Source of the DNA: a virus
Taxonomy: Duplodnaviria; Caudoviricetes
Length of the DNA stretch: 31,660 nucleotides
Virus record (IMG/VR): IMGVR_UViG_3300030207_001746
Span: 1-31,660 of that record
Reading direction: 5' to 3' (one strand)
A program made the position numbers and the translations under genes. The notes under the pieces are model-generated. The model ran no database searches, was not told the origin of the DNA, and worked only from the letters and a program-made list of their open reading frames with translations. This document shows, in pieces, positions 1-31,660 of this stretch; the first letter of the stretch is position 1, and each line of letters starts with the position of its first letter.

Positions 1-1665
1 GCTGAAACAGTTAACTTAGCCACTATATCAAGTGATAGTAGATATGGGATACTCTCTAAGTCTGGTGCCGATGCGAAGAAAATGTTTACTGATAAAGTTG
101 TACCTATATCAATAAATTACCCTTTCTTCTTTAAACCTATACAAGATGGTATGGATCGTCCAAAGTCTGAGCTTGCGTATAGAGTTCCAGCTAGTAAGTT
201 TACTCGTAAGAAAATACAGGTTAACGAACAGCTTGAAGAGATAGCAGGTCTTGACACTACGATCGACTGGAAGAATACAGGTGATAATAGCTATGATGGT
301 GAAAAGCTAAGTTTATTAGTACACGATGAGAGCGGTAAGTGGGAAAGACCTGATAACATATTAAACAACTGGCGAGTTACTAAAACCTGTCTAAGGTTAG
401 GTAGTAGAGTCGTTGGTAAGTGCATGATGGGTTCAACTAGTAATGCGCTTGATAAAGGTGGGGATAACTTTAAAAAATTATACAATGATTCTGACGTATC
501 AAGACGAAATGCTAATGGACAAACGAAGTCTGGGCTTTATTCTCTCTTTATCCCAATGGAATGGAACTATGAAGGATTTATTGACGAATACGGACTTCCA
601 GTCTTTGATAATCCATGTGATGCAGAACGACTGGGACCAGACGGTGAACTAATAGATGTAGGTGTAATAACAAGCTGGGAAAATGAAGCTGATGGTTTAA
701 GAGATGATCAAGACGCTTTGAACGAATTTTATCGTCAATTTCCTAGAACAGAAGAGCACGCGTTTAGAGATGAGACTAAAAACAGTATATTTAATTTAAT
801 TAAAATATACGAGCAAATAGATTATAACGAAGGTAGTATTCATAATGCGCCTTTTACTGTTGGTAGTTTTTCTTGGGAAAATGGGATTAAAGATACGAGA
901 GTTATATTTCACCCTGATCCCACTGGTAGATTTAAAGTAAGCTGGGTACCTCCATCTCATTTACAAAATAAACAGTTTACAAAAAATGGTATTAAGTTTC
1001 CAGGTAATGAACATGTTGGAGCATTTGGATGCGATAGTTACGACATTAGCGGTACTGTTGATGGTCGCGGTTCTAAAGGAGCTTTACACGGACTAACGAA
1101 ATTTTCTATGGAAGAAGCGCCATCAAGCACGTTCTTCCTAGAGTACATAGCAAGACCACAAACCGCAGAGATATTTTTTGAAGACGTATTAATGGCGTTA
1201 GTATTTTACGGTATGCCTTTACTTGCAGAGAACAATAAACCAAGGCTACTATATTACTTAAGACGTAGAGGCTACAGAGGGTATAGCATGAATAGACCAG
1301 ATAGAACTTGGAAAAAAATGTCCACTTCAGAAAAAGAAGTTGGTGGCATACCAAACTCTAGCGAAGACATTAAGCAAGCTCACGCGGCCGCTATAGAGAT
1401 GTACATTCAAAACCACGTTGGTCATCTTGGTGATGGTCAGTATGGAACCGTATATTTTAATGAGCTACTAAACGATTGGGCTAAGTTTGATATAAACAAA
1501 AGAACTAAACATGATGCTTCGATAAGCTCTGGTTTAGCTATCATGGCTTGCAACAGACACCTATATGCACCAAACGCTAAAATAGAAAAAACACCTTTGA
1601 ATTTGAATATATCTAAATATGATAATAAAGGGTATAACTCCCAAATAATAAACAAGCATGGCTGA
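1..1665 (+). CDS. terL: Terminase large subunit (5'-truncated)
   Basis: The frame is open from base 1 (AETVNLATISSDSRYGILSKSGADAKK-MFTDK), so the ATG at 82 is probably internal. Walker B LLVHDESGK and coupling-motif-like MGSTSN are present, as are RNase H-like nuclease acidic motifs FGCDSYD and KHDASISS. It is directly upstream of the portal, with an 8-nt ATGGCTGA overlap. Confidence 0.93.
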   Translation, partial: AETVNLATISSDSRYGILSKSGADAKKMFTDKVVPISINYPFFFKPIQDGMDRPKSELAYRVPASKFTRKKIQVNEQLEEIAGLDTTIDWKNTGDNSYDGEKLSLLVHDESGKWERPDNILNNWRVTKTCLRLGSRVVGKCMMGSTSNALDKGGDNFKKLYNDSDVSRRNANGQTKSGLYSLFIPMEWNYEGFIDEYGLPVFDNPCDAERLGPDGELIDVGVITSWENEADGLRDDQDALNEFYRQFPRTEEHAFRDETKNSIFNLIKIYEQIDYNEGSIHNAPFTVGSFSWENGIKDTRVIFHPDPTGRFKVSWVPPSHLQNKQFTKNGIKFPGNEHVGAFGCDSYDISGTVDGRGSKGALHGLTKFSMEEAPSSTFFLEYIARPQTAEIFFEDVLMALVFYGMPLLAENNKPRLLYYLRRRGYRGYSMNRPDRTWKKMSTSEKEVGGIPNSSEDIKQAHAAAIEMYIQNHVGHLGDGQYGTVYFNELLNDWAKFDINKRTKHDASISSGLAIMACNRHLYAPNAKIEKTPLNLNISKYDNKGYNSQIINKHG

Positions 1666-20510: not shown

Positions 20511-23500
20511 ATGCAAGAATTATATACAAAGTTATTTCAACAAGAGCTTTATACAAACTCGTTTGAGCAGTTTAAAATAGACTATGGTTCACCAGAGGGT
20601 GCTAGAGAACTATACAATAAACTTGCTGTACAAAGCGATTTGTATACTAATAGTTTTAGTGATTTTCAAAGAGATTACTCTATTGGTTTACCTGAATCAC
20701 AGCCTACTTCGCAGGGTAATACAGTAAAGCGTAATATAGGCAGCACTATGCTTGATGTAGGTGTCACTCGTTCTAGCGCAACTGAAGAAGACAACACAAC
20801 GACTGGACTTTTTGGAACGCAGATAAAGAGCACTTTTGATGTTTCACAAAACATACAGATGCCTGAGGTTTCCTACGATATGCCGGACACTACTGGAGTT
20901 ATTGATTTTGATCAATCATTACTTAACTTAAGCTTAGATGTACCAGAGCCAACAACTTCGCAAGTTCCCGAATATACAAATGAAAACGATCCGTTTGGCT
21001 TAGCTGCTAGCCTTGGTATAGACACGGGCACTCCTGAATATCAGAGAATGCTAGAGCTCGCGGCTCTTTTGCGCGAAGCAGAACAAAAGCGTTTAGAAGG
21101 TCCTACGCCAATGCAGATTTCTGAGGAAGAGCAGAGGATTACGGATTTAATGATGTACGGAGAAGAGCCGGTAGAAGAAGAGCCGTCAGAAGAAGATAAA
21201 GAAAAAGAGGCTCTTATAGCTAAGATGAGAGAAGAAGGCGCTGGTATTCTTGAATCACAACAACAGGGTTATAGTTCTGAAGAAAATCTTGTTAGAGCTA
21301 ACAATGCTGAAAAACCTGAGATACAAGGTATCAACAATTGGTATACTGAAAACAGTGATCGATTAAATAAAATCGAACTTGATACACCTGTAATATCACC
21401 TAACGCAACGGCAGAAGAGATTCAAAAGGCACAAGAGGCTATGCAAGAGCAGTGGTCTAATAAGGTAGAGGAGTTATATAATCAAGAGGTTGTAGAGCCG
21501 TATAACGAAGCTCTTAAAGTATATCAAAAAGCTGTAGCTACAAAAGAAAAGACAAAAGCTAGAGAAATTGTAACTGAGGTTATTAACAATAATATTGGTG
21601 GCTGGTGGTCTGAAGAGAATATGGCGAAAAACCTCAAAGAAGTACTTCCTGTTGAATACCAAATAGAAGAAGGCATTGGAGAGTACTCTGAAGGTACCGC
21701 TACGCGTCTTAGCGTTAATAATATAACTATAACTAATTCTCACGGTGTAGCAAGGAATTTTAATCTTAGAAGTAGCACGGAGTTTGCTAAAGAGCTATTT
21801 GAGTTTTTAGAAGAAGACCCTACTTTAACTGATGAAAAAGGGGAGGAGTGGGTAGAGCAAAAAGAAGCTTTTTCAAGAAATTGGCTAGATAATTATTTTG
21901 GAGAAGGCGGAAGCGGTTTCCATGCTTTTATGGACGACCCGCAACGTGTTGAAGACATACAAGCGGGAATTATTACAATAGATGATGCTCTTAAAGAAAT
22001 AAAAGGTCGTTTAGGTACTGAAGATGCTTGGACGTTATTTGGTGAAAAAGTTAGACAGGCTTATCCTGCTTTAACTGATTCAGATATAGATCACATTATT
22101 AAAGAAAGGTATCACGCCGAAATTGAGGCTCACAAAAACAAAGGTTTAGACAATTTAGCAGCTGGCTTTGATGAGAGATTATTACAAGGAGACATAACGC
22201 TTACCGAGCTCCACCCTGGCGTACCAGTTGGTGAGCATGATCCCGATAGGAATACTCTTAACTACAACGTAAATGTTTATCAAGCTAAAGAAGGACGAAC
22301 CGTAAGCATAAAAGACGCAGAACAATTCTTTAAAACATATACTGCCTCTCAGATTAATACTATTGAGGATCCTTTGATGAGAGAGTTGGCTAGCATCAAC
22401 ATGTTATTAGATAATCAAGAAAACTTGCGTTACGCTGAGATTCAATTTTATCTAAACAAAAGAGATCAGATCATACAGCAGATTAAAGAGGAAGGTGGAG
22501 AATATGAAATGCTATTTGATTTAACTACAGGGCAATTAATTAGACCAGTTGGTAAAGACAATCCATTTGTTACCGAAAATACTGAAGACGTTACTGGAGA
22601 AATACAGCAGCAAGAAAAAGAATTAAGAGCAGAATTTGCAAGTAATCCACACTTAACGCCAAGAGATATGGCTAGAGAGGCTTACGAAAAAAATGCTAAG
22701 GCTCTAGCTGTTTTAAACGCGCAGCTAAACGAAGTTCAAAGATTTGAGTTTTATCGACCGGAACTTACTTTAGAGGAACGGGTTCAAGTTAGTGAGCCTA
22801 GTACACGCGCAGGTGTAGATGTTAGAGATATGACCGTGCGCGAGGCGTTGATTAAGTCTAACTATGCTGATGGAGCCGAGGACTTTATTGAATACCATAC
22901 AGACGCATTTGGATCTAAAGTACAAGGCGGTCAGATCATGTATTTCCACGCTTTTAGCGCAGATGGAGTTGCACAGAGAAATATATTAAGGCAGCAAATG
23001 CGAGACCTTAAAATACAGCAAGAGGCATTAAAAAGAATATATCTTTTAAATGAAGATGTTATATCTATAGAAAAGAATAACGCTCAAAACTATACAAAGT
23101 TAGCTATTATGAGTCTGCCTTTTGCAGGTACTATAGGGAACATGTTAGCTCCTGAAACCATGGCTTTTGGTGGTGTTCCGACAGAAAGAGAAGTTATAGA
23201 TGAGTATATTCCTACTTTAACTAACGCTGGTATTGAAATTAGAGGAGATCAAAAAGCTTATGTTGATCGAAGTTTTGGAGAACAATTTGGCGAGGGGCTT
23301 GCTTCTAGCGCAGGTATACTTGTTGAGTTTGCCATAGCAAACAAGGCTGCAGCTGCATTAAGAACAGCTAGAATTTTTTCTGGTGGTACTAAAAGCTTAG
23401 ATATGATACTCAAAGCGCATAAAGCTAAGAGATATTGGAACGGAAAACAAGCTTTAACTGTAGCTCAAGCAACAGCAGCGGCAAACAACGCTAAATTACC

Positions 23501-26500
23501 TTTGTCAGTGTACTTAGCTCAAGGTGGTTATAACGCAACTAAAAGCGCTAGCTTAGCTTCTAAAGTTGGAGTTTTTCTAACTGAGTCTACTATTGAAGGG
23601 GCAAAGTTTGCTTCTTTGCCTTCTTCTTCAGGCGCAAGACTAGAGTCGTTTGCTACTGGTTTTGGCTTTGGTGGTGCAACACAGATTTTATCACCGATGC
23701 TAGGTACTATAAATGCGAGCACGTTTAGTCCAGCCTTTCAAAAAACTAGATTTGGCGCTATGATGGCTAACAACGCTCCAAGGCTAGAAAAAATATATAA
23801 CTTAGCGTTTAAAGGACCTTTAAGCTTCACAGTTGGTAGTGAAGTTGGAGAACTTGGACTTGCTTTGACTGACGACTTAATGGGTTACGAAGAGTTTAGT
23901 GGCATGATAGAAGAGCACTATGGCGATGGATCAAGTAACTTACAACGCTGGGCTAGCAACTGGGCTATGGGTACAGCTTTTGGTTTTACGCACGCTGCCG
24001 CTTACAAAAAAGCCGGTACAATAGAAAGTTTAAGAGAAGCTAAAAAAGAAGCAGAAGACGCTATCTTTGAAACACGAGACAACTACGTTATTAGAAATAA
24101 AAAAACAGGTGAAGTTTTTGAAGCACCTAGTAAGAAAAACTACCAGACAAAAGATTTTGAAATAATCGAAAGACCTGGTATGAGGAAGTGGCGTACTAAG
24201 AAAAAGAACGGAGAGCCCATGACTCAAGAATATCTTGTAGACATGTACCAGTTAAGTCAAAATTTATCGCAGCAATTAAGAAGAAGTGAAGATGGTTTAG
24301 ACTTAATAGATAGAACTATAGGCGCTTCAAGATTAAAGACTAGAACCTTAGAGCAAGTTAAGCACTATAAAGAAAAAGGCGCTAACGTTGAAGTAGAATA
24401 TGGTAGTCCTGAAACATACATAATACGAGATAAAAGAACTGGTAAGGTAAGAGAGGTTAACAAGAAGCCTAGTGGATCAGGCGCTGCTAACTACGAGATC
24501 TTAATGGAACCTATGGGTAATAGAAACGCAGAGGTCTATTACAAAGATAAAGACGGCAATATAATGGACGTCGGCTTAATGGGTAAAAAAGTTAAAGGCT
24601 CAACAGTAGTAGTAAGATATAACGTAGAAAAATTTGCAGAAGGATATGCTCCGCACGAGCTAGGTCACTCAGGTATGGAAATACTGTTTGGTACTAACGC
24701 TAGATTTAAAAGCGATTTCGTGCAAAAACTTATGGGTATAGCTAAAGAAATTAAACTTGGCGTAGGTCCAGATGGAGAGTTACCACTTTTTGAAAATCTT
24801 TACGATCAGATAGTAGAGCAGAACCGTTTATTTGATGTAGAAAAAACACCATGGGAAGCCGCTAAAGCAAAAGACTGGGAGCTATTTAGCCATATAGCTG
24901 AGCACTTATCTAAGCCAGAAAACTTAAGAGAGCTAAGAAAAGCAAACGCGTTTGGTAAAGTTAGAGATTTAGTTAGGCAAACTGTAGGAAAAGAATTAAA
25001 CCAAGAATATAACTTTACAAAAGAGGCAGACATAGTAGAGTTCTTTGGTAACTATATTGAAAGCATTAACAGAGGTAAGAACAGTTTAAAAGTGCTTGAG
25101 CATTTGCAAGATGTTATAGCTGAGCCAAGTAGCCCTGAGGCTAGAGAGATGGAAAGGCTTTACAACGAGCAAGGTATACATTTTACTGAAACAAGTAGAT
25201 TAGCTTCAGAGTCTAACAGACGACGTGATCTTATTAAAGAGAACGTTGATTTGTTTAAAAATAAGCCAGAAGGTTATGAGGCTAAAATGCAGGAAAATAT
25301 ACAAGCTATTAGATCAATAGATGATCTTTTAGTGATAAATAGACCTGCACAAAACGAATCAGACAACGCTAGAAAAGAAAGAGTAAATAGAATACATGCT
25401 GGCCATAAGGACGTTATGTTTAGCAAAGACTTAGTAGGTAGAGACGCTCAACGACAAGGGGAGGCTATTGATGCTATAATAAGTTCTTATAGAGGTAAGA
25501 CCATAGCTGTGGCTAAAAGTCAAGGAAGATTTGAAACGCCTACATTTGAGAACATGTCTAAGTCTGAAAGAGAAGATTTTGCATGGGATATTACTAGGCC
25601 AGAACTATTAAAACACCTAGATGCTTTTAATAGAAAGTTTAGAGAGACAGATGGAAAAGAAGGTATTGAAAATGATGATCTTGATGCTTACTTAAATTCG
25701 TACATTGTAAATAAACTAGGTACAGCATTAAAGAGACCTGGTATTGAAAAGACTGAATTTACAGGGACTACAACAGATTTAAAGCCAGGTCAAGAGCCAG
25801 CTTACACTCCTTCAGAAATGAAGTTGAACAATAAGACTGATGCTAGACTTAGAATAGATATAAGAGAAAGACTTACTGACAACGCTCCTGAAGAAAGAAA
25901 ATCAAAAATACAGGAAGGTATTAAAGAGCACGGTAAATTTGTTAAGGATTATATAGAAACAACGTCTGATGCACCTACTTCATATCGTGATTTAAAAAAT
26001 ATAAAAACTCCAAAAGAAATAGTTGACAAAGTATTTGGTAAGAACACTGCAGAGCGCATTGAAACCATAGGTAGAACTCTAGATATAGCTAAAAAATCTG
26101 CACTACCAGAAGGAACGTTATCTACTAGGACTGGTAACGTAGAACTAGAAGGTAAAGCTATTGGTGTAGCCAACACTCTACAAACAATTAATATAGCTAA
26201 AAAAGGTCAACCAGCAAACTACAAAGAGGTTTTATACGGTACTCCTAAAAAATTCGCAGAGTTTGTATCTAAAGAGACTGGAAGACTTACAGCTGAAGCA
26301 GATCCTACTGGTCAAGGCAATACACCTAAAGAATTACTTAAACTAAGTAGAGCTGAAACGCTTAAGAGGTTAGGTATAAAAGAAGTTGAAGTTGGTGGTG
26401 GTGAAGTTAGATATGACATTGACAATACGCTAGCTAAGGAATACGCTAGTGAACCTGGCTCTAAGAGCGAGAAGGCTATTGCACGAAACATAGAAGGTAT

Positions 26501-29500
26501 TAGAAAGAACTACATGGAAGAAGTAGTTAGAGGTATGACGTACCAGGTTGCCATGGAGAACTTGCCTGCTGTGTCTCAAAAGCTAGGTATTGCTACAGAG
26601 ATTTTAGCTAATCAGATTAGCGCGGGTAAAGCTAGACTTGCTAGTAAAACTTTAGAGATGAAAGATTTTACTGAGCAAATGGAGTTTTTAGATCAAATCG
26701 AAAGTAAAGAGTTTAAAGATTTGTATGAAAAAGCCGTGGCTGAAAGAGAAGAGAAGGCTTTTGAGCATGCTATGATAACTCACTTTGCAAACAACCCTGT
26801 TGAAAATATAAGCAAGACAGACATAAAGAACATTGCAAAGCAACTTGAAGCGCAGTTTACGTTTACAACTATGACGCCTAAGAGAGCTATTGAAGCGTCT
26901 ATGAAAGCCATTGCATACCCAAAAAGCTTGCAATCAATAGAGGCTAAGTATGGGTTTGAAGCTCTTGAAACAAAAAATCTATATGATACCATAGAAGGCA
27001 TTAGAGAAGGACAAGCCGCCTTTACTATGGAGGGTGGTATTATAGAGACTTTAACTCGAACTAAGGGTAAAGGAGCGTTTGAGGCTTTAATAAAAGAAGG
27101 TGTAAGTAAAGGAGCTGGTCTTGGTACTTATAGATCGCATAGAGAGTATGAAGTACGAAATAAAAGAACTGGAAAAGTAACGAAGACTAACAAGAGGCCT
27201 AGCAAATCAGAAATTGAAAACGCTGAAAATCCATTAGAAATTTTAAGCGAAACCCTTATTAAGACTGCAGAGCAGAACATGATTGAGGGAAACACCGAGT
27301 TTAGAAGCGACAACAGGTTTGCTTTGTTTGAAACAGCTGCTAAAGCACAAGAGGCTGCTGATGGTGTGTACGCTAGACTAGAGTCTGAAGGTGTTAAGCT
27401 AAAAGACTACGAAGGATCTTCACGTGCAAATTCAGACGCGGTTGGTAAGAAAAAAAGAGTATTAGAAGGAGTCACAGGAAAAGACGGAGCGTGGGATTTA
27501 AAAGCCCGCGAAGAGTTTGATAGGATAGGCGAAGAAAATAAAAAAGCTTTATTTGATGGTAAAGGAAAGTCATCTGTAGTAGAAGCAATGAAAGATATGT
27601 ACGTTAATGGCGACATAACGTACCGTCAAGTTAGGCAAATCGTTGAAGGGCAAGGAGGTCCTATGGAAGGCTTGATTAAAAAATCAGCTTCGCTAGCCGT
27701 GTTACCTGAAACGAGTAGAGCAGATATAGAGGCTGTATACGGAAAAAATTGGGTTCTTGAACATACTACTCCAGCTCAGTACGTAAAAGCTAGAATATAT
27801 GATTACATATTATCTGGAGGTAAGGCGCCACAAGCTAAAGCCTTAAAACTTACTCTTAGAGATTATCATACTACTCTTATACCAGAGTCGTTAGACACAA
27901 TGGTAAATAAAATATTAAAAACTGATTTACCATCGTTCCACGTACCAGGTATGGATCCTATAGAATCTAGGTATTATATGGCTAACCATAAATCTCCTTT
28001 TGATTTATCGTTAGTTAACTATAGAAATAATAAAGTCTATAGCAAAACAGGTTTATCTGTTGCTGAAATATCTAGAAGAGGTGCTATGCTTAGAGAGTCT
28101 TATGCAGAGATGATAAGCCCTCGTTTAGCATCAAAAAATTTAGAGCCTACCCGTATGCTTGAGCAAATGGAAACTATGAAGAAGGCTGTAGCTAATTCTA
28201 GAAATCCTCGTGCTAAGAAGAAGGGTATGAGCACGTTTGATTTTGACGAGACTTTAATTGTAGATGGAGAAAACTTCGTTGTAGCAACTAAAGATGGTAA
28301 GCGTGTAGAAATTAGTAGCGAAAAGTGGCCTATAGAAGGTCCTAAGTATGCTGAGCAAGGGTATGAATTTGACTTTTCTGATTTTGCAAATGTAAGAGGT
28401 GGTACCGACGGGCCACTGCTACAGAAGATGAGAAATCAAATAAGCAAGTATGGATCAAACAATGTGTTTGTATTGACAGCCAGACAACAAGCGTCGGCTG
28501 AACCTATACATAGTTGGCTTAAAAGCAAAGGCATAGACATACCTTTAGAAAATATTACTGGTCTAGGCAAGAGTGAAGGCGCGGCAAAGGCTCAGTGGAT
28601 GTTAGAAAAGTTTGCTGAAGGTTATAACGATATGTACTTTGTCGATGACGCTTTACCTAACGTTGAAGCTGTTAGAGAAGTGTTAAGCCAACTTGATATT
28701 AAGTCTAACGTTCAACAAGCGCGTAGACTAGCTTCGAAAGACATGAACTTAGAGTTCAATCAAATGATTGAGCGTAAAACTGGCATTGGTTACCAAAAGA
28801 TATTTAGCGGAGCTAAAGGTAAAATGCTAGGTAAGCGTAGATATACTCAGTCAATTGTAGTGCCTGGCGCTCAAGACTTTATGGGCCTTATGCAAAACTT
28901 TATGGGTAAAGGTAAACGAGGTGATGCTGACAGAGCTTTCTTTGAAGAAAACTTAGTTAAGCCTTTTGCTAGAGCTACTAAAGAAATGAACGAAGCTAGA
29001 CAAAGATCTTCTGAAGATCTTAAGGCTTTGTATAAAGATATACCTAGTGTTAAAAGAAAATTAAACAAACGACTACCTGGATCTGCTTTTACGTATGATC
29101 AAGCTATTAGGACTTACTTATGGGAGAAAAACGGTTTTAATATTCCTGAGTTATCTATGAGAGATTTAAAGTCACTGACTGATGTTGTTAACAAAGACGT
29201 TGAATTACGTAACTTTGCCGAGCAATTAAATATGATAGGTAAAGGCACGTGGGTTGAACCATCAGCTAACTGGATAGGTGAAACTATTGTATCAGATTTG
29301 TTTAACTTAAATAACAAAGCTAGACGAGCTGAATACCTACAAGAGTGGCAAGAAAATATCGACACTATATTCTCACCAACTAATCTAAATAAAATTGAAG
29401 CCACTCAAGGTAGTAAATTTAGAGAAGCTCTTGAAGATTCTATATATAGAATGAAGACAGGTTCTAATAGACCTACAGGTGCTAATAGGTTAACTAATCA

Positions 29501-31076
29501 GTTTAATAATTGGATCAACGGTTCTGTTGGAGCTACGATGTTCTTGAATATGAGATCGGCTATGCTTCAGACTATATCCGCAACAAACTACATTAACTGG
29601 TCGTTTAACAATCCGGTTGCTGCGGCAAGAGCATTTGGTAACCAAAAACAATATTGGAAAGATTTTTCTATGTTATGGAACTCACCAATGCTTAAGCAAA
29701 GAAGATCTGGTCTTGAGTATAACGTGCAAGAAGCTGAGCTTGCAGCTGCTATGGCTGGCCAGAAAAACAAGGCTAAAGCAGCTGTTGCTTGGTTAATTAA
29801 AAAAGGATTTACGCCTACGCAAGTTGCTGATAGTTTTGCAATATGTGGCGGTGGTGCTACCTACTATAGAAATAAAGTAAGAGAGCTTACGAAGCAAGGC
29901 GTAAGTAAAGCTGAGGCTCAAGAAAGAGCTTTTTTAGAATTCCAAGAGTTAACAGAAACTAATCAGCAATCATCGAGAGCAGATCTTATATCTCAACAAC
30001 AAGCGTCTGGTTTAGGTAGAACTATACTTGCGTGGTCTAATACACCTATGCAGTATATGCGTATACAAGAAAAAGCGGCTAGAGATATAGTAAACGGTAG
30101 AGGTGACTTAAAAGCTAACATGTCTAAGATCGCTTATTACGGAGTTATACAGTCAGCTATATTCTCTTCATTACAAAACGCTTTGTTTAGATGGGGACTA
30201 GAGGAAGAAGACGAAAACAACGAAGCTGATAATAAAGATTTAAACGCATCTATTGATAGAACGGTAAATACAGTTATTGATTCTCAACTTAGAGGTACTG
30301 GTGTTCTTGGTGCAGCGCTAAGTGCTATACGTAACACGGTGCTTGAGTTTGAAAAGCAAGAGGCGAAAGCTTATGACGATAGTTTTTTGAGCTCTCCAGA
30401 TCACAGTAGAACTGTTCTTCAGCTAACTAGTTTTTCTCCTGTTATAAGTTCTAAGTTACGTAAGCTATACTCAGCAGGTAATGAATGGAACTATAATAGA
30501 GAGGCTATAAGCGAGATGGGTTTTGATATTGATAATCCTGCTATACACGCTGGCGCAAACGTACTTGAAGCTGTAACTAACTTGCCTTTCGCTAGACTTG
30601 TACAGAAAGTAGATAACATACAAGGCGTGCTAGATAGTAATAACGAAACTTGGCAACGCGTGGCGTTATTAATGGGTTATCCTAAGTGGCAGCTTGGTAT
30701 TGAAGATACGGAAGTTGAAGAAGCTAAGCAAAGAGGTAGAGATAGGATCAAAGCTATAAAAGACGCTGAAAGAGAGATAGAAAAACAACAAAAAGAGATA
30801 GTAAAAGCAGATGAAGAGCTTGCGGAAATAGAAGATAATATACTTGACCAGGACGAGGAGAGAGAGCAAGGCGCGAAAGAAGTTCAATGCGCTGCGGTAA
30901 GTAGATCCGGTAAGCGATGTTCAAATATGGCTTTACCTGGTGAAAACTTCTGCACAATACATATGCCAGTGCCGCAGCAAAAAGATGAGGTACAGTGCTC
31001 ACATATAAAGAAAGACGGCAAACGTTGTAAAATGAAAACTAAAAATAAATCAGGAAAATGCTACTACCACGATTAA
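20511..31076 (+). CDS. Giant internal virion/ejection polyvalent protein (3521 aa): zincin HExxH, sigma-like module, EHxxP module, HAD phosphatase, two CCCH Zn fingers
   Basis: Uninterrupted 10.5-kb ORF in the third ejection-gene slot. HELGH at aa 1382; DFDETL at aa 2577 with LTAR and FVDD; RLAS at aa 1563, 2042, 2538 and 2739; two C-x9-C-x10-C-x2-H motifs at the C-terminus. Confidence 0.8.
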   Translation: MQELYTKLFQQELYTNSFEQFKIDYGSPEGARELYNKLAVQSDLYTNSFSDFQRDYSIGLPESQPTSQGNTVKRNIGSTMLDVGVTRSSATEEDNTTTGLFGTQIKSTFDVSQNIQMPEVSYDMPDTTGVIDFDQSLLNLSLDVPEPTTSQVPEYTNENDPFGLAASLGIDTGTPEYQRMLELAALLREAEQKRLEGPTPMQISEEEQRITDLMMYGEEPVEEEPSEEDKEKEALIAKMREEGAGILESQQQGYSSEENLVRANNAEKPEIQGINNWYTENSDRLNKIELDTPVISPNATAEEIQKAQEAMQEQWSNKVEELYNQEVVEPYNEALKVYQKAVATKEKTKAREIVTEVINNNIGGWWSEENMAKNLKEVLPVEYQIEEGIGEYSEGTATRLSVNNITITNSHGVARNFNLRSSTEFAKELFEFLEEDPTLTDEKGEEWVEQKEAFSRNWLDNYFGEGGSGFHAFMDDPQRVEDIQAGIITIDDALKEIKGRLGTEDAWTLFGEKVRQAYPALTDSDIDHIIKERYHAEIEAHKNKGLDNLAAGFDERLLQGDITLTELHPGVPVGEHDPDRNTLNYNVNVYQAKEGRTVSIKDAEQFFKTYTASQINTIEDPLMRELASINMLLDNQENLRYAEIQFYLNKRDQIIQQIKEEGGEYEMLFDLTTGQLIRPVGKDNPFVTENTEDVTGEIQQQEKELRAEFASNPHLTPRDMAREAYEKNAKALAVLNAQLNEVQRFEFYRPELTLEERVQVSEPSTRAGVDVRDMTVREALIKSNYADGAEDFIEYHTDAFGSKVQGGQIMYFHAFSADGVAQRNILRQQMRDLKIQQEALKRIYLLNEDVISIEKNNAQNYTKLAIMSLPFAGTIGNMLAPETMAFGGVPTEREVIDEYIPTLTNAGIEIRGDQKAYVDRSFGEQFGEGLASSAGILVEFAIANKAAAALRTARIFSGGTKSLDMILKAHKAKRYWNGKQALTVAQATAAANNAKLPLSVYLAQGGYNATKSASLASKVGVFLTESTIEGAKFASLPSSSGARLESFATGFGFGGATQILSPMLGTINASTFSPAFQKTRFGAMMANNAPRLEKIYNLAFKGPLSFTVGSEVGELGLALTDDLMGYEEFSGMIEEHYGDGSSNLQRWASNWAMGTAFGFTHAAAYKKAGTIESLREAKKEAEDAIFETRDNYVIRNKKTGEVFEAPSKKNYQTKDFEIIERPGMRKWRTKKKNGEPMTQEYLVDMYQLSQNLSQQLRRSEDGLDLIDRTIGASRLKTRTLEQVKHYKEKGANVEVEYGSPETYIIRDKRTGKVREVNKKPSGSGAANYEILMEPMGNRNAEVYYKDKDGNIMDVGLMGKKVKGSTVVVRYNVEKFAEGYAPHELGHSGMEILFGTNARFKSDFVQKLMGIAKEIKLGVGPDGELPLFENLYDQIVEQNRLFDVEKTPWEAAKAKDWELFSHIAEHLSKPENLRELRKANAFGKVRDLVRQTVGKELNQEYNFTKEADIVEFFGNYIESINRGKNSLKVLEHLQDVIAEPSSPEAREMERLYNEQGIHFTETSRLASESNRRRDLIKENVDLFKNKPEGYEAKMQENIQAIRSIDDLLVINRPAQNESDNARKERVNRIHAGHKDVMFSKDLVGRDAQRQGEAIDAIISSYRGKTIAVAKSQGRFETPTFENMSKSEREDFAWDITRPELLKHLDAFNRKFRETDGKEGIENDDLDAYLNSYIVNKLGTALKRPGIEKTEFTGTTTDLKPGQEPAYTPSEMKLNNKTDARLRIDIRERLTDNAPEERKSKIQEGIKEHGKFVKDYIETTSDAPTSYRDLKNIKTPKEIVDKVFGKNTAERIETIGRTLDIAKKSALPEGTLSTRTGNVELEGKAIGVANTLQTINIAKKGQPANYKEVLYGTPKKFAEFVSKETGRLTAEADPTGQGNTPKELLKLSRAETLKRLGIKEVEVGGGEVRYDIDNTLAKEYASEPGSKSEKAIARNIEGIRKNYMEEVVRGMTYQVAMENLPAVSQKLGIATEILANQISAGKARLASKTLEMKDFTEQMEFLDQIESKEFKDLYEKAVAEREEKAFEHAMITHFANNPVENISKTDIKNIAKQLEAQFTFTTMTPKRAIEASMKAIAYPKSLQSIEAKYGFEALETKNLYDTIEGIREGQAAFTMEGGIIETLTRTKGKGAFEALIKEGVSKGAGLGTYRSHREYEVRNKRTGKVTKTNKRPSKSEIENAENPLEILSETLIKTAEQNMIEGNTEFRSDNRFALFETAAKAQEAADGVYARLESEGVKLKDYEGSSRANSDAVGKKKRVLEGVTGKDGAWDLKAREEFDRIGEENKKALFDGKGKSSVVEAMKDMYVNGDITYRQVRQIVEGQGGPMEGLIKKSASLAVLPETSRADIEAVYGKNWVLEHTTPAQYVKARIYDYILSGGKAPQAKALKLTLRDYHTTLIPESLDTMVNKILKTDLPSFHVPGMDPIESRYYMANHKSPFDLSLVNYRNNKVYSKTGLSVAEISRRGAMLRESYAEMISPRLASKNLEPTRMLEQMETMKKAVANSRNPRAKKKGMSTFDFDETLIVDGENFVVATKDGKRVEISSEKWPIEGPKYAEQGYEFDFSDFANVRGGTDGPLLQKMRNQISKYGSNNVFVLTARQQASAEPIHSWLKSKGIDIPLENITGLGKSEGAAKAQWMLEKFAEGYNDMYFVDDALPNVEAVREVLSQLDIKSNVQQARRLASKDMNLEFNQMIERKTGIGYQKIFSGAKGKMLGKRRYTQSIVVPGAQDFMGLMQNFMGKGKRGDADRAFFEENLVKPFARATKEMNEARQRSSEDLKALYKDIPSVKRKLNKRLPGSAFTYDQAIRTYLWEKNGFNIPELSMRDLKSLTDVVNKDVELRNFAEQLNMIGKGTWVEPSANWIGETIVSDLFNLNNKARRAEYLQEWQENIDTIFSPTNLNKIEATQGSKFREALEDSIYRMKTGSNRPTGANRLTNQFNNWINGSVGATMFLNMRSAMLQTISATNYINWSFNNPVAAARAFGNQKQYWKDFSMLWNSPMLKQRRSGLEYNVQEAELAAAMAGQKNKAKAAVAWLIKKGFTPTQVADSFAICGGGATYYRNKVRELTKQGVSKAEAQERAFLEFQELTETNQQSSRADLISQQQASGLGRTILAWSNTPMQYMRIQEKAARDIVNGRGDLKANMSKIAYYGVIQSAIFSSLQNALFRWGLEEEDENNEADNKDLNASIDRTVNTVIDSQLRGTGVLGAALSAIRNTVLEFEKQEAKAYDDSFLSSPDHSRTVLQLTSFSPVISSKLRKLYSAGNEWNYNREAISEMGFDIDNPAIHAGANVLEAVTNLPFARLVQKVDNIQGVLDSNNETWQRVALLMGYPKWQLGIEDTEVEEAKQRGRDRIKAIKDAEREIEKQQKEIVKADEELAEIEDNILDQDEEREQGAKEVQCAAVSRSGKRCSNMALPGENFCTIHMPVPQQKDEVQCSHIKKDGKRCKMKTKNKSGKCYYHD
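20517..20678 (+). repeat. Tandem ~24-aa peptide repeat (two copies) at the N-terminus of the giant protein
   Basis: ELYTKLFQQELYTNSFEQFKIDY (20517-20585) versus ELYNKLAVQSDLYTNSFSDFQRDY (20607-20678). Confidence 0.85.
24084..27251 (+). repeat. Three dispersed copies of a ~30-aa basic module inside the giant protein
   Basis: YVIRNKKTGEV...PS...FEIIE (24084-24170), YIIRDKRTGKV...KPS...YEILME (24417-24509) and YEVRNKRTGKV...RPS...LEILSE (27147-27251). Confidence 0.8.
30888..31070 (+). repeat. Two tandem C-x9-C-x10-C-x2-H zinc-finger-like motifs
   Basis: CAAVSRSGKRCSNMALPGENFCTIH (30888-30962) and CSHIKKDGKRCKMKTKNKSGKCYYH (30996-31070), each preceded by EVQ. Confidence 0.85.
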
Positions 31077-31660
31077 GTTTATTACTAACCTTACTATTTA
31101 GCTGTACAGTACTACAAGCTCAAGAGTTAAAGAAAGCATTTAAGTTTTCTACTTTTTATGCAGCTGTCAATGGAGGTAACTCCGTGTCAGATCAGACTGT
31201 ATACTCTGTTACTAACGGGCTAACTCAAGAAACTATAGCAACACCGTTTGACTATAGCTTATCTATGGGTGTTCGTAAAATCGCTAGGTTTGGTTATGAA
31301 AACAGAGCTAACGCTTTTTATGACGGATCAGAGACATCTTGGTCTGCTGATGCTAATATAGGTAAGCGAAACGGTATAGAGTTTCTTGGAGAAGTTACAT
31401 ACGAAAGACAGCAAGGCCGGGAGTTCTTTAATCAACACCACTTTTTTCGTTACATCGGAGATAAAGTTATGGCAAAGGTTGAATACCTTGAAGACGGGTT
31501 TGCAGACATTGAATACTTTGAAGGATCACAACGATTTCGACTTAAGCTTGGTAACAAGTTTTCTTTGCACGCAGGTGTCGCACAACGTATCTCAGAGCCT
31601 TACGGATATGATCCACTTGAAGAGTGGAAGCTGGCAACAGGAGACATACACTATACTTAC
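31058..31660 (+). CDS. Secreted protein with signal peptide, probable outer-membrane beta-barrel (3'-truncated; absent from the ORF track)
   Basis: Manual translation gives 201 open codons to the window end: MLLPRLSLLLTLLFSCTVLQA-QELKKAFKFSTFYAAVNGG...FDYSLSMGVRKIARFGYE...IEFLGEVTYERQQG...FSLHAGVAQR. It overlaps the giant gene by 19 nt. Confidence 0.75.
   Translation, partial: MLLPRLSLLLTLLFSCTVLQAQELKKAFKFSTFYAAVNGGNSVSDQTVYSVTNGLTQETIATPFDYSLSMGVRKIARFGYENRANAFYDGSETSWSADANIGKRNGIEFLGEVTYERQQGREFFNQHHFFRYIGDKVMAKVEYLEDGFADIEYFEGSQRFRLKLGNKFSLHAGVAQRISEPYGYDPLEEWKLATGDIHYTY

Follow-up and report, generated by a model that had tools for sequence, protein, structure and literature searches.

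A very diverged sigma-70 domain 2 within a giant ejection-slot protein of uncultured marine phages, and a candidate promoter motif that it may read

Does a giant protein encoded beside the virion genes of an uncultured tailed phage carry a transcription initiation factor, and if so, of what kind? The question is raised by IMG/VR record IMGVR_UViG_3300030207_001746 (Caudoviricetes), of which we analyzed positions 1 to 31,660; this whole 31,660-nucleotide stretch is called the window here. The record is linear and 58% complete, and in it terminase, portal, capsid and tail genes are followed by open reading frames (ORFs) of 227, 404 and 3521 amino acids (aa). An earlier note on this DNA had proposed that the segment of the 3521-aa giant between the first two copies of a repeated RLAS motif (the module) is a sigma-70/extracytoplasmic function (ECF)-like factor, and the residues that it quoted do sit at the places given within ORF 20511-31076. 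We find that the module contains a genuine sigma-2 domain in a novel context, outside the complete sigma-70/ECF family: sequence and the fold of a relative support a sigma-70 domain 2 inside a giant of the ejection-protein slot (table 1). To the reading that this module is an injected, cut-free, phage-specific starter sigma, opening ACAA-N19/20-GATAATA motifs before the early genes, we give a probability of about 0.5.

On profile homology and the modeled fold of a relative, aa 1614-1760 are a very diverged sigma-70-family domain 2, an assignment that we make because several individually modest scores agree. A hidden Markov model (HMM) of 247 family members, which excluded both the clade of the window and the sister clade closest to it, matches window aa 1644-1757 at 20.2 bits (E=3.2e-8), whereas the best of 200 whole-protein shuffles reached 7.0 bits (real scores, 20-33 bits); a profile that excludes only its own clade matches the window at E=2.8e-12. 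The homology claimed earlier for aa 1652-1742 is thus sustained, but the borders are not: the domain starts at about aa 1614 and carries an 11-residue insert after FN. The window segment itself has no match in Pfam, PHROG or NCBIfam, so that a direct comparison with sigma families fails, whereas relatives do match them. PF04542 (Sigma70_r2) is matched by 7 of 44 members (best 4.8e-4) and TIGR02937 by 8 of 46 modules (best 2.5e-8; top score 33.7 bits, in L057, against a cut-off of 42.9), and members also match FliA/WhiG, RpoH (L021, 3.3e-4), SigI and SigK models; these library matches fall below the curated cut-offs, where cut-offs are shown. Among Protein Data Bank (PDB) sequences the family profile best matches the SigE N-terminal domain (E=0.071), the F[ND]P...L.[GA][WYF] pattern of the family aligning to region 2.2-2.3 of 8b3z. 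The window keeps the pattern of regions 2.2-2.4, with F1690, L1699, F1706, N1721 and L1724 at columns that are 79-91% conserved, and in 95% of 282 rows the residue aligned with its position 1727 is aromatic.

The structural evidence comes from the relative L060, whose AlphaFold model (44 sequences) has a predicted local distance difference test score (pLDDT) of 82.7. Its residues 1-115, compared with 48,161 chains, place sigma factors at ranks 1-15 (best Z 7.6, root-mean-square deviation (rmsd) 3.1, 86 residues aligned), and the match to SigE (8b3z) has probability 1.0 and a template-modeling (TM) score of 0.74; the sigma factors CnrH and AlgU are among the fold matches. For another relative, P0129, the ESM Atlas matches were confined to clusters without a name (0.89) and one Sigma70_r2 cluster (0.88), which we treat as a lead only. 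The sigma-2 domain has little similarity to the stand-alone phage sigma described below (hhalign E=0.23). By homology, it would bind the beta-prime clamp helices of the core polymerase.

Homolog searches returned 10 close and 63 more distant giants, and 69 viral loci; the family comprises 328 clusters (50% identity, E≤0.001), with the module embedded in proteins of 2,000-3,800 aa. The first sigma-2 HMM matches 54 of 74 loci examined; 19 of the other 20 have, by eye, a diverged sigma-2 preceding this same C-terminal domain, and the remaining locus is truncated. A tblastn search of 50,697 cultured phage records with two module types gave no match at E≤1. Given this divergence, one may ask whether a sigma-2-like helical bundle has simply been reused in a role unrelated to RNA polymerase, such as a scaffold, an anti-sigma decoy or DNA protection. 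Library matches below curated cut-offs, a structural Z under 8 and four relatives (L034, L039, L050 and L063) that have lost the usual 2.3-2.4 pattern would all be compatible with such a role. We nonetheless consider it improbable, since sigma factors are ranked first by every independent method and the domain is kept at a fixed place across those 328 clusters, co-occurring with the ACAA-N19/20-GATAATA motif.

What follows the sigma-2 domain is of a different nature from that first proposed. As judged from profile comparisons, the C-terminal 285 residues of the module are a fast-evolving uncharacterized domain with no recognizable sigma-4. Its counterparts across the family span 230-290 aa and are tightly coupled to sigma-2; at least five types with four or more members can be distinguished, of which types 0, 1, 2 and 5 are clearly homologous, and the type of the window (21 sequences) and type 3 link to the others only at E 0.004-0.3. 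An iterative HMM search with the window's domain stays at the 21 close sequences (hhalign to other types, E 0.007-0.75). The columns of a G-x-R-K element, a candidate DNA-contacting site, are the only invariant ones of a 46-row alignment, whose loci, however, had been gathered by means of this very motif; the window reads GIRKN here, and its similarity to the mainstream type around the element is weak (E 0.007-0.01). In the L060 model the C-terminal domain is well predicted and mostly helical, with KGTRKD starting a 27-residue helix. GTRKD was considered as a sigma-4 recognition helix and rejected: the geometry is that of a helix-loop-helix (H258-266, H272-298), but profile support is absent. 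In L057:9392-10795 and in protein P0140, an insert that is absent from most members and looks like a region-4.2 helix-turn-helix (HTH) by eye lies directly before GLKGTRKD; this insert accounts for the extension of the TIGR02937 match in L057 to model position 161.

The earlier note had placed a region 4.2 HTH at 26559-26639, as the end of a complete ECF-like factor. A region-4 profile made from 14 actual phage sigma factors gives the window's C-terminal domain -3.9 bits, a value that 186 of 500 shuffles attain too; the best profile-profile match (hhalign) to region 4 does fall on this segment but is nonsignificant (E=0.088, probability 0.6%). No NCBIfam match was found for aa 1964-2045, no sigma among the PDB matches of the clade profile of this domain, and no sigma in a search of PDB sequences with the C-terminal-domain profile. 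Of 50 Pfam families matched by 45 C-terminal domains, the 25 commonest include no sigma-4. ESM Atlas gave no usable match for the window's domain, and for L060 residues 135-335 no fold match is listed in a whole-model search, which residues 1-115 filled. FliA profile matches in L016, L019, L031 and L060 reach model positions 147-176 of 224, which hints weakly at a resemblance to sigma-3. The idea of a complete ECF-like sigma, in which a 270-residue insert parts sigma-2 from a 4.2 HTH at aa 2017-2043, could appeal to the HTH-like look of the segment, to its conservation in the clade, to its holding the best region-4 match, and to the Foldseek top rows for L060, which are full-length WhiG alignments (E=0.11-0.18, rmsd 17-18). 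The shuffle result, the missing sigma-4 among the 25 commonest Pfam families and the PDB sequences, and a length that varies by 10-20 residues in the equivalent stretch of relatives all argue against it, and we regard this architecture as highly improbable; the region 4.2 claim is not supported.

How might such a module reach a host? The giant is likely an ejection or cargo protein, to judge from its place and its relatives: in phi18:3 the last giant gene, gp123, is syntenic and carries a structural annotation based on tandem mass spectrometry (MS/MS), and family profile A3, from the N-terminal ~700 aa, matches the giants of phi38:1, phi18:3 and an Elemo phage (E 1e-8 to 2e-13); profile A1, of the window clade, reaches E=0.02 at best against these cultured giants. 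It also has the makings of a polyvalent protein, being a multidomain giant with an invariant HExxH that is encoded with virion genes. The HExxH (HELGH in the window), which we take to be a zincin-type metallopeptidase motif, lies 180 residues upstream of the sigma module; H1382, E1383, G1385 and H1386 are invariant in 11 homologs and the motif is near-invariant in 27 distant giants too, and its region has no Pfam match. RLAS occurs four times in the giant (aa 1563, 2042, 2538 and 2739) against 0.077 expected by composition (P(≥4)=1.4e-6), and the copies separate apparent modules (peptidase, sigma module, LEHT-containing, DxD phosphatase-like and C-terminal domain). The position of the second copy corresponds to a near-invariant FS that closes the module in distant relatives (F340 and S341 in at least 90% of 44); at the N-terminal side, a loose border pattern was found in 115 of 236 wider family members, against a 28% background, a weak result. 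From this arrangement we infer that the HExxH domain may release the module by cleavage at RLAS/FS.

Release is the point at which another reading departs, namely that the module stays within the ejected conduit protein as a tether, keeping host polymerase on the incoming DNA and thereby letting transcription draw in the genome, with no free sigma activity. The module does sit in a giant of the ejection-protein slot, strict conservation is lacking at RLAS site 1, and N4-like giant ejected proteins are reported to form a transcribing ejectosome (PMC13434306). The short repeated motifs at both borders and the HExxH just upstream suggest release instead, and a tether would moreover be compatible with promoter recognition and hence overlaps with a starter sigma; we think it distinctly unlikely as a separate explanation.

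The giant shows no sign of a polymerase of its own. The remark in the earlier note that no polymerase catalytic motif is visible agrees with our scans, within the limits of a 58% complete contig: DFDGD/DFDID is absent from the window giant and occurs among the fetched giants only in three unrelated places, Pfam and PHROG scans of the giant returned no polymerase domain, and PF00623 was found in 0 of 20 relatives (0 of the 7 near-complete ones), although this test may miss very divergent polymerases.

What the module might read is suggested by a motif, ACAA-N19/20-GATAATA, with the consensus wTTACAAAyTAAATACGA-N9-GATAATATA (90 sites). Near-complete relatives overall have 5-12 copies, and six of seven near-complete module-bearing genomes have 5-11 (reversed control, at most 2). 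The sites precede small ORFs by 30-60 bases or less, and their strand is the one that does not carry the virion genes; the middle block is TACGA in most genomes and TTAA-like in G004, G007, G020 and G028. Relatives also encode a stand-alone sigma-70 factor of ~255 aa with regions 2 and 4 (TIGR02937 E=1.8e-16, 60.2 bits), which is conserved at 53-71% identity and is likely a middle or late sigma; it was not found in the G001 and G002 fragments. Its region 4.2 is unusual (GSSSYVRVSQLKKQA). Starting from the motif, we selected 26 distinct contigs of at least 48 kb (from 80 of 155 loci), 16 of them at least 90% complete. Among these 16, the stand-alone sigma is present in 15, and HMMs detect the module in 15 (six at once and nine of the ten others with wider profiles, the weakest sigma-2 match at E=4e-4), the sixteenth being recognized by eye. 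Five annotated relatives lack the module, the stand-alone sigma and an above-chance motif alike. A search of 208 upstream regions for a late-gene promoter brought out no distinct 7-mer, the best being GGTTTTG with 13 copies.

Two lines of evidence bear on which factor reads the motif. For all 14 examined copies of the stand-alone sigma gene (13 genomes), a motif on the same strand is located 1.0-6.9 kb upstream of the gene, and in 11 only co-oriented ORFs lie between. The stand-alone sigma therefore cannot easily start its own transcription, and another factor probably reads the motif first. The Bacteroidota housekeeping consensus at -33/-7 is TTTG/TAnnTTTG. The motif is unlike this consensus and is rare in four genome bins (1, 4, 1 and 4 copies, both four-copy bins having them on few contigs), so that the virion module is the simplest candidate reader. 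One perfect copy was seen in a 1.39-Mb Flavobacteriales contig (L331; G078 contig 2, ~984,300), from a genome without a match to the C-terminal part of the giant.

The same genomes can be read differently, with the injected module as a sigma decoy that fills the sigma-2 site on the host core and displaces host sigmas or silences defense transcription, the motif being left to host sigma-A or to the stand-alone sigma. A module without recognizable sigma-4, diverging very fast beside a nearly fixed motif, would suit an arms-race protein, and the conserved stand-alone sigma co-occurs with the motif. We consider a decoy unlikely: a phage without its own polymerase needs the core polymerase active, the stand-alone sigma gene is itself downstream of motifs, the motif differs from the Bacteroidota consensus and is rare in the tested bins, and the region 2.3-2.4 positions are conserved, which a pure decoy would not need.

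In the starter-sigma reading, the giant would be packaged in the virion, as its gene slot and the MS-annotated syntenic giant suggest, and injected with the DNA, whereupon the HExxH domain would cut the module free at RLAS/FS. The module would dock on host RNA polymerase via the beta-prime clamp helices; its regions 2.3-2.4 would read GATAAT, and its C-terminal domain would read the upstream ACAAAyTAAATACGA block in place of sigma-4. Early genes would thereby be switched on, including the stand-alone sigma, which would then drive later genes in a cascade. The injection and redirection of host polymerase that had been envisaged from the sequence would fit such a course, and the family-wide motif upstream of the stand-alone sigma lends it indirect support. 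Most likely, in our view, the module works like a minimal phage sigma delivered in the manner of the virion polymerases. More tentatively, and at somewhat less than even odds, we suggest that uncultured marine Flavobacteriia-type podophages start infection with a self-released virion-injected sigma of novel architecture (sigma-2 plus a new kind of upstream-element reader), which would retarget host RNA polymerase to a dedicated ACAAAyTAAATACGA-N9-GATAATA promoter and set off a two-sigma cascade.

Several observations weigh against a starter sigma. Presence and absence cannot tell which factor reads the motif, as a conserved stand-alone sigma is found in 15 of the 16 motif-bearing genomes; module, motif and stand-alone sigma travel together, so that co-occurrence cannot assign the reader, and the data would equally suit positive feedback that a weak host promoter sets going. 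The motif is almost invariant, whereas divergence within the module is extreme (C-terminal types related at E 0.004-0.3). Closest to the window the motif is scarce: the window (58% complete) has neither a motif copy nor a stand-alone sigma, nor has its nearest relative G001 (86% complete), early region or motif being absent from these two, and G002, of the window clade, has a single copy, at the end of its contig. In G009 (91% complete) the module occurs without motif or stand-alone sigma. The fold check suggested for the sigma-2 bundle succeeded for L060, which is 21% identical to the window in this domain and whose Z of 7.6 lies in the range reached by common helical bundles; a single-sequence AlphaFold model of window aa 1607-1780 is unusable (pLDDT 43), and a fold search with it returned no sigma in the top 40 rows. 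Packaging of the module-bearing giant is, finally, suggested only by synteny and by N-terminal homology with the MS-annotated giant.

Table 1. Features of the giant protein in the window, with motif sites and stand-alone sigma genes of relatives
Feature	Coordinates	Strand	Evidence
Giant protein, 3521 aa, last of three genes (227, 404, 3521 aa) after tail genes	20511..31076	+	ORF list, synteny, N-terminal homology
HELGH, candidate processing protease motif, aa 1382-1386	24654..24668	+	Conservation in homologs
RLAS site 1, N-terminal module border, candidate cleavage site	25197..25208	+	Exact in 3/10 homologs P0004-P0013, altered in others
Sigma-70-family domain 2 (regions 1.2-like, 2.1-2.4), very diverged, aa 1614-1760	25350..25790	+	Profile homology, fold of relative
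Uncharacterized module C-terminal domain, aa 1761-2041	25791..26633	+	Always after sigma-2 in family; several very diverged types
G-x-R-K, aa 1996-1999, candidate DNA-contacting site	26496..26507	+	Aligned with KGTRKD opening long helix in mainstream type
Candidate region-4.2 segment	26559..26639	+	Kept in close clade; sigma-4 match not significant
RLAS site 2, C-terminal module border	26634..26645	+	Kept in 9/9 homologs P0004-P0012; P0013 stops before site
RLAS site 3	28122..28133	+	Motif occurrence
FDFDETL, in module between RLAS 3 and 4	28236..28256	+	Near-invariant D2577, F2578, D2579, T2581, L2582
RLAS site 4	28725..28736	+	Motif occurrence, homolog comparison
Motif sites in relatives	G002:35921-35951; G004:56808-65633; G007:23653-33564; others	+; +; -	Motif scan
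Stand-alone sigma genes	G003:61253-62020; G004:63847-64608; G007:25027-25791; others	-; +; -	Profile search

The window phage is, by its proteins, a relative of Elemovirus-, Pervagoviridae- and Pachyviridae-type phages rather than a crAss-like phage proper. Its capsid and portal share 27-51% identity with those of Flavobacteriaceae phages (Elemovirus, Pervagoviridae phi38:1, Pachyviridae phi18:3, Maribacter phage Panino and an uncultured spring-water phage), and the sole feature common to the window and crAss-like phages is a muzzle-domain match in the Pfam scan. The host is probably a marine flavobacterium, because capsid, portal and giant resemble those of Flavobacteriaceae phages. Both the giant gene and the ACAA-N19/20-GATAATA motif occur on contigs of one Flavobacteriaceae bin; as bins can catch phage contigs, this is a weak hint of the host.

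Other parts of the giant and its neighborhood deserve brief mention. The FDFDETL motif between RLAS 3 and 4 is, we assume, a HAD-type phosphatase motif I, in a module with no significant Pfam match. A conserved VLEHTTP at 27756-27773, between RLAS 2 and 3, resembles what we take to be an HNH-type nuclease core and has no library match. At the C-terminus (30870-31076) are two Cys/His zinc-finger-like repeats, near-invariant in the close clade, with weak PF19067 and PF13891 matches; an LPD38 label, considered for the C-terminal third, was dropped for want of Pfam support. The homologous giants P0009, P0012 and P0069 carry a zeta-toxin/AAA_33-like P-loop kinase domain (PF06414, PF13671), which shows that the cargo modules of giants are swapped, and the same-slot giant of Maribacter phage Panino (L007:31774-37263) has a methyltransferase-annotated domain and no sigma module. 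Directly after the giant, ORF 31058-31660 has a signal-peptide-like start, an outer-membrane-protein-like composition and no library match; its slot holds an ORF of 347-392 aa in relatives.

Phages are known to start transcription from host-type promoters, by chemical modification of the host polymerase or with an injected polymerase. The module shares with sigma-70 domain 2 (PF04542; nearest entries SigC 2o7g, sigma-32 8hkc, SigE 8b3z, WhiG 6pfv, FliA TIGR02479) the helical bundle of regions 1.2-2.4; unlike those factors, it is embedded in a giant, has no detectable sigma-3 or sigma-4, continues into an uncharacterized 230-290-aa domain and scores below curated cut-offs. T4 gp55 and the promoter-specificity subunit of the AR9 non-virion polymerase both achieve sigma-2-based promoter recognition without sigma-4, the latter by joining a sigma-2-like part to a unique C-terminal part. 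Both resemble L060 sigma-2 (gp55, 7d7d/7d7c chain F, Z 6.6; AR9 subunit, 7s01 chain A, Z 4.9), but they are separate proteins made during infection, whereas the module belongs to what is probably a virion protein. Late genes are the targets of gp55; the AR9 subunit works with a phage polymerase, whereas no phage polymerase was found in module phages.

A second likeness is to crAss-like phi14:2 gp66, the N4 virion RNA polymerase and the tape-fused polymerase of P23-45, in which early-transcription machinery is carried in a giant virion protein. Virion polymerases in giant ejected proteins are reported in three sources (10.1101/2020.03.07.982082; PMC13434306; 10.1101/2022.12.01.518664); a module phage would, by contrast, deliver the specificity factor only. 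The giant further resembles T4 Alt and the polyvalent proteins, which are described as large multidomain injected proteins with predicted processing by a zincin metallopeptidase and a proposed role in jump-starting transcription (Iyer et al. 2017, PMC5512222). The main text of that paper lists N4-like RNA polymerase and modifying enzymes, and the word sigma does not occur in it, although its supplements may bear on the point. The phage sigmas described in PMC7824862 are separately encoded ones, and our literature search turned up no publication that deals with the ACAA-N19/20-GATAATA motif or with a sigma domain inside a virion giant.

Thanks to the candidate promoter, three purified components would suffice to test the starter-sigma idea directly, and a sigma with its promoter, as a pair foreign to Bacteroidota, could find use in orthogonal gene expression. 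The C-terminal domain may represent a new promoter-reading fold. If the injected sigma is real, it would give a large family of phages (328 clusters at 50% identity) a compact further route to begin transcription, a third beside host promoters and virion polymerases.

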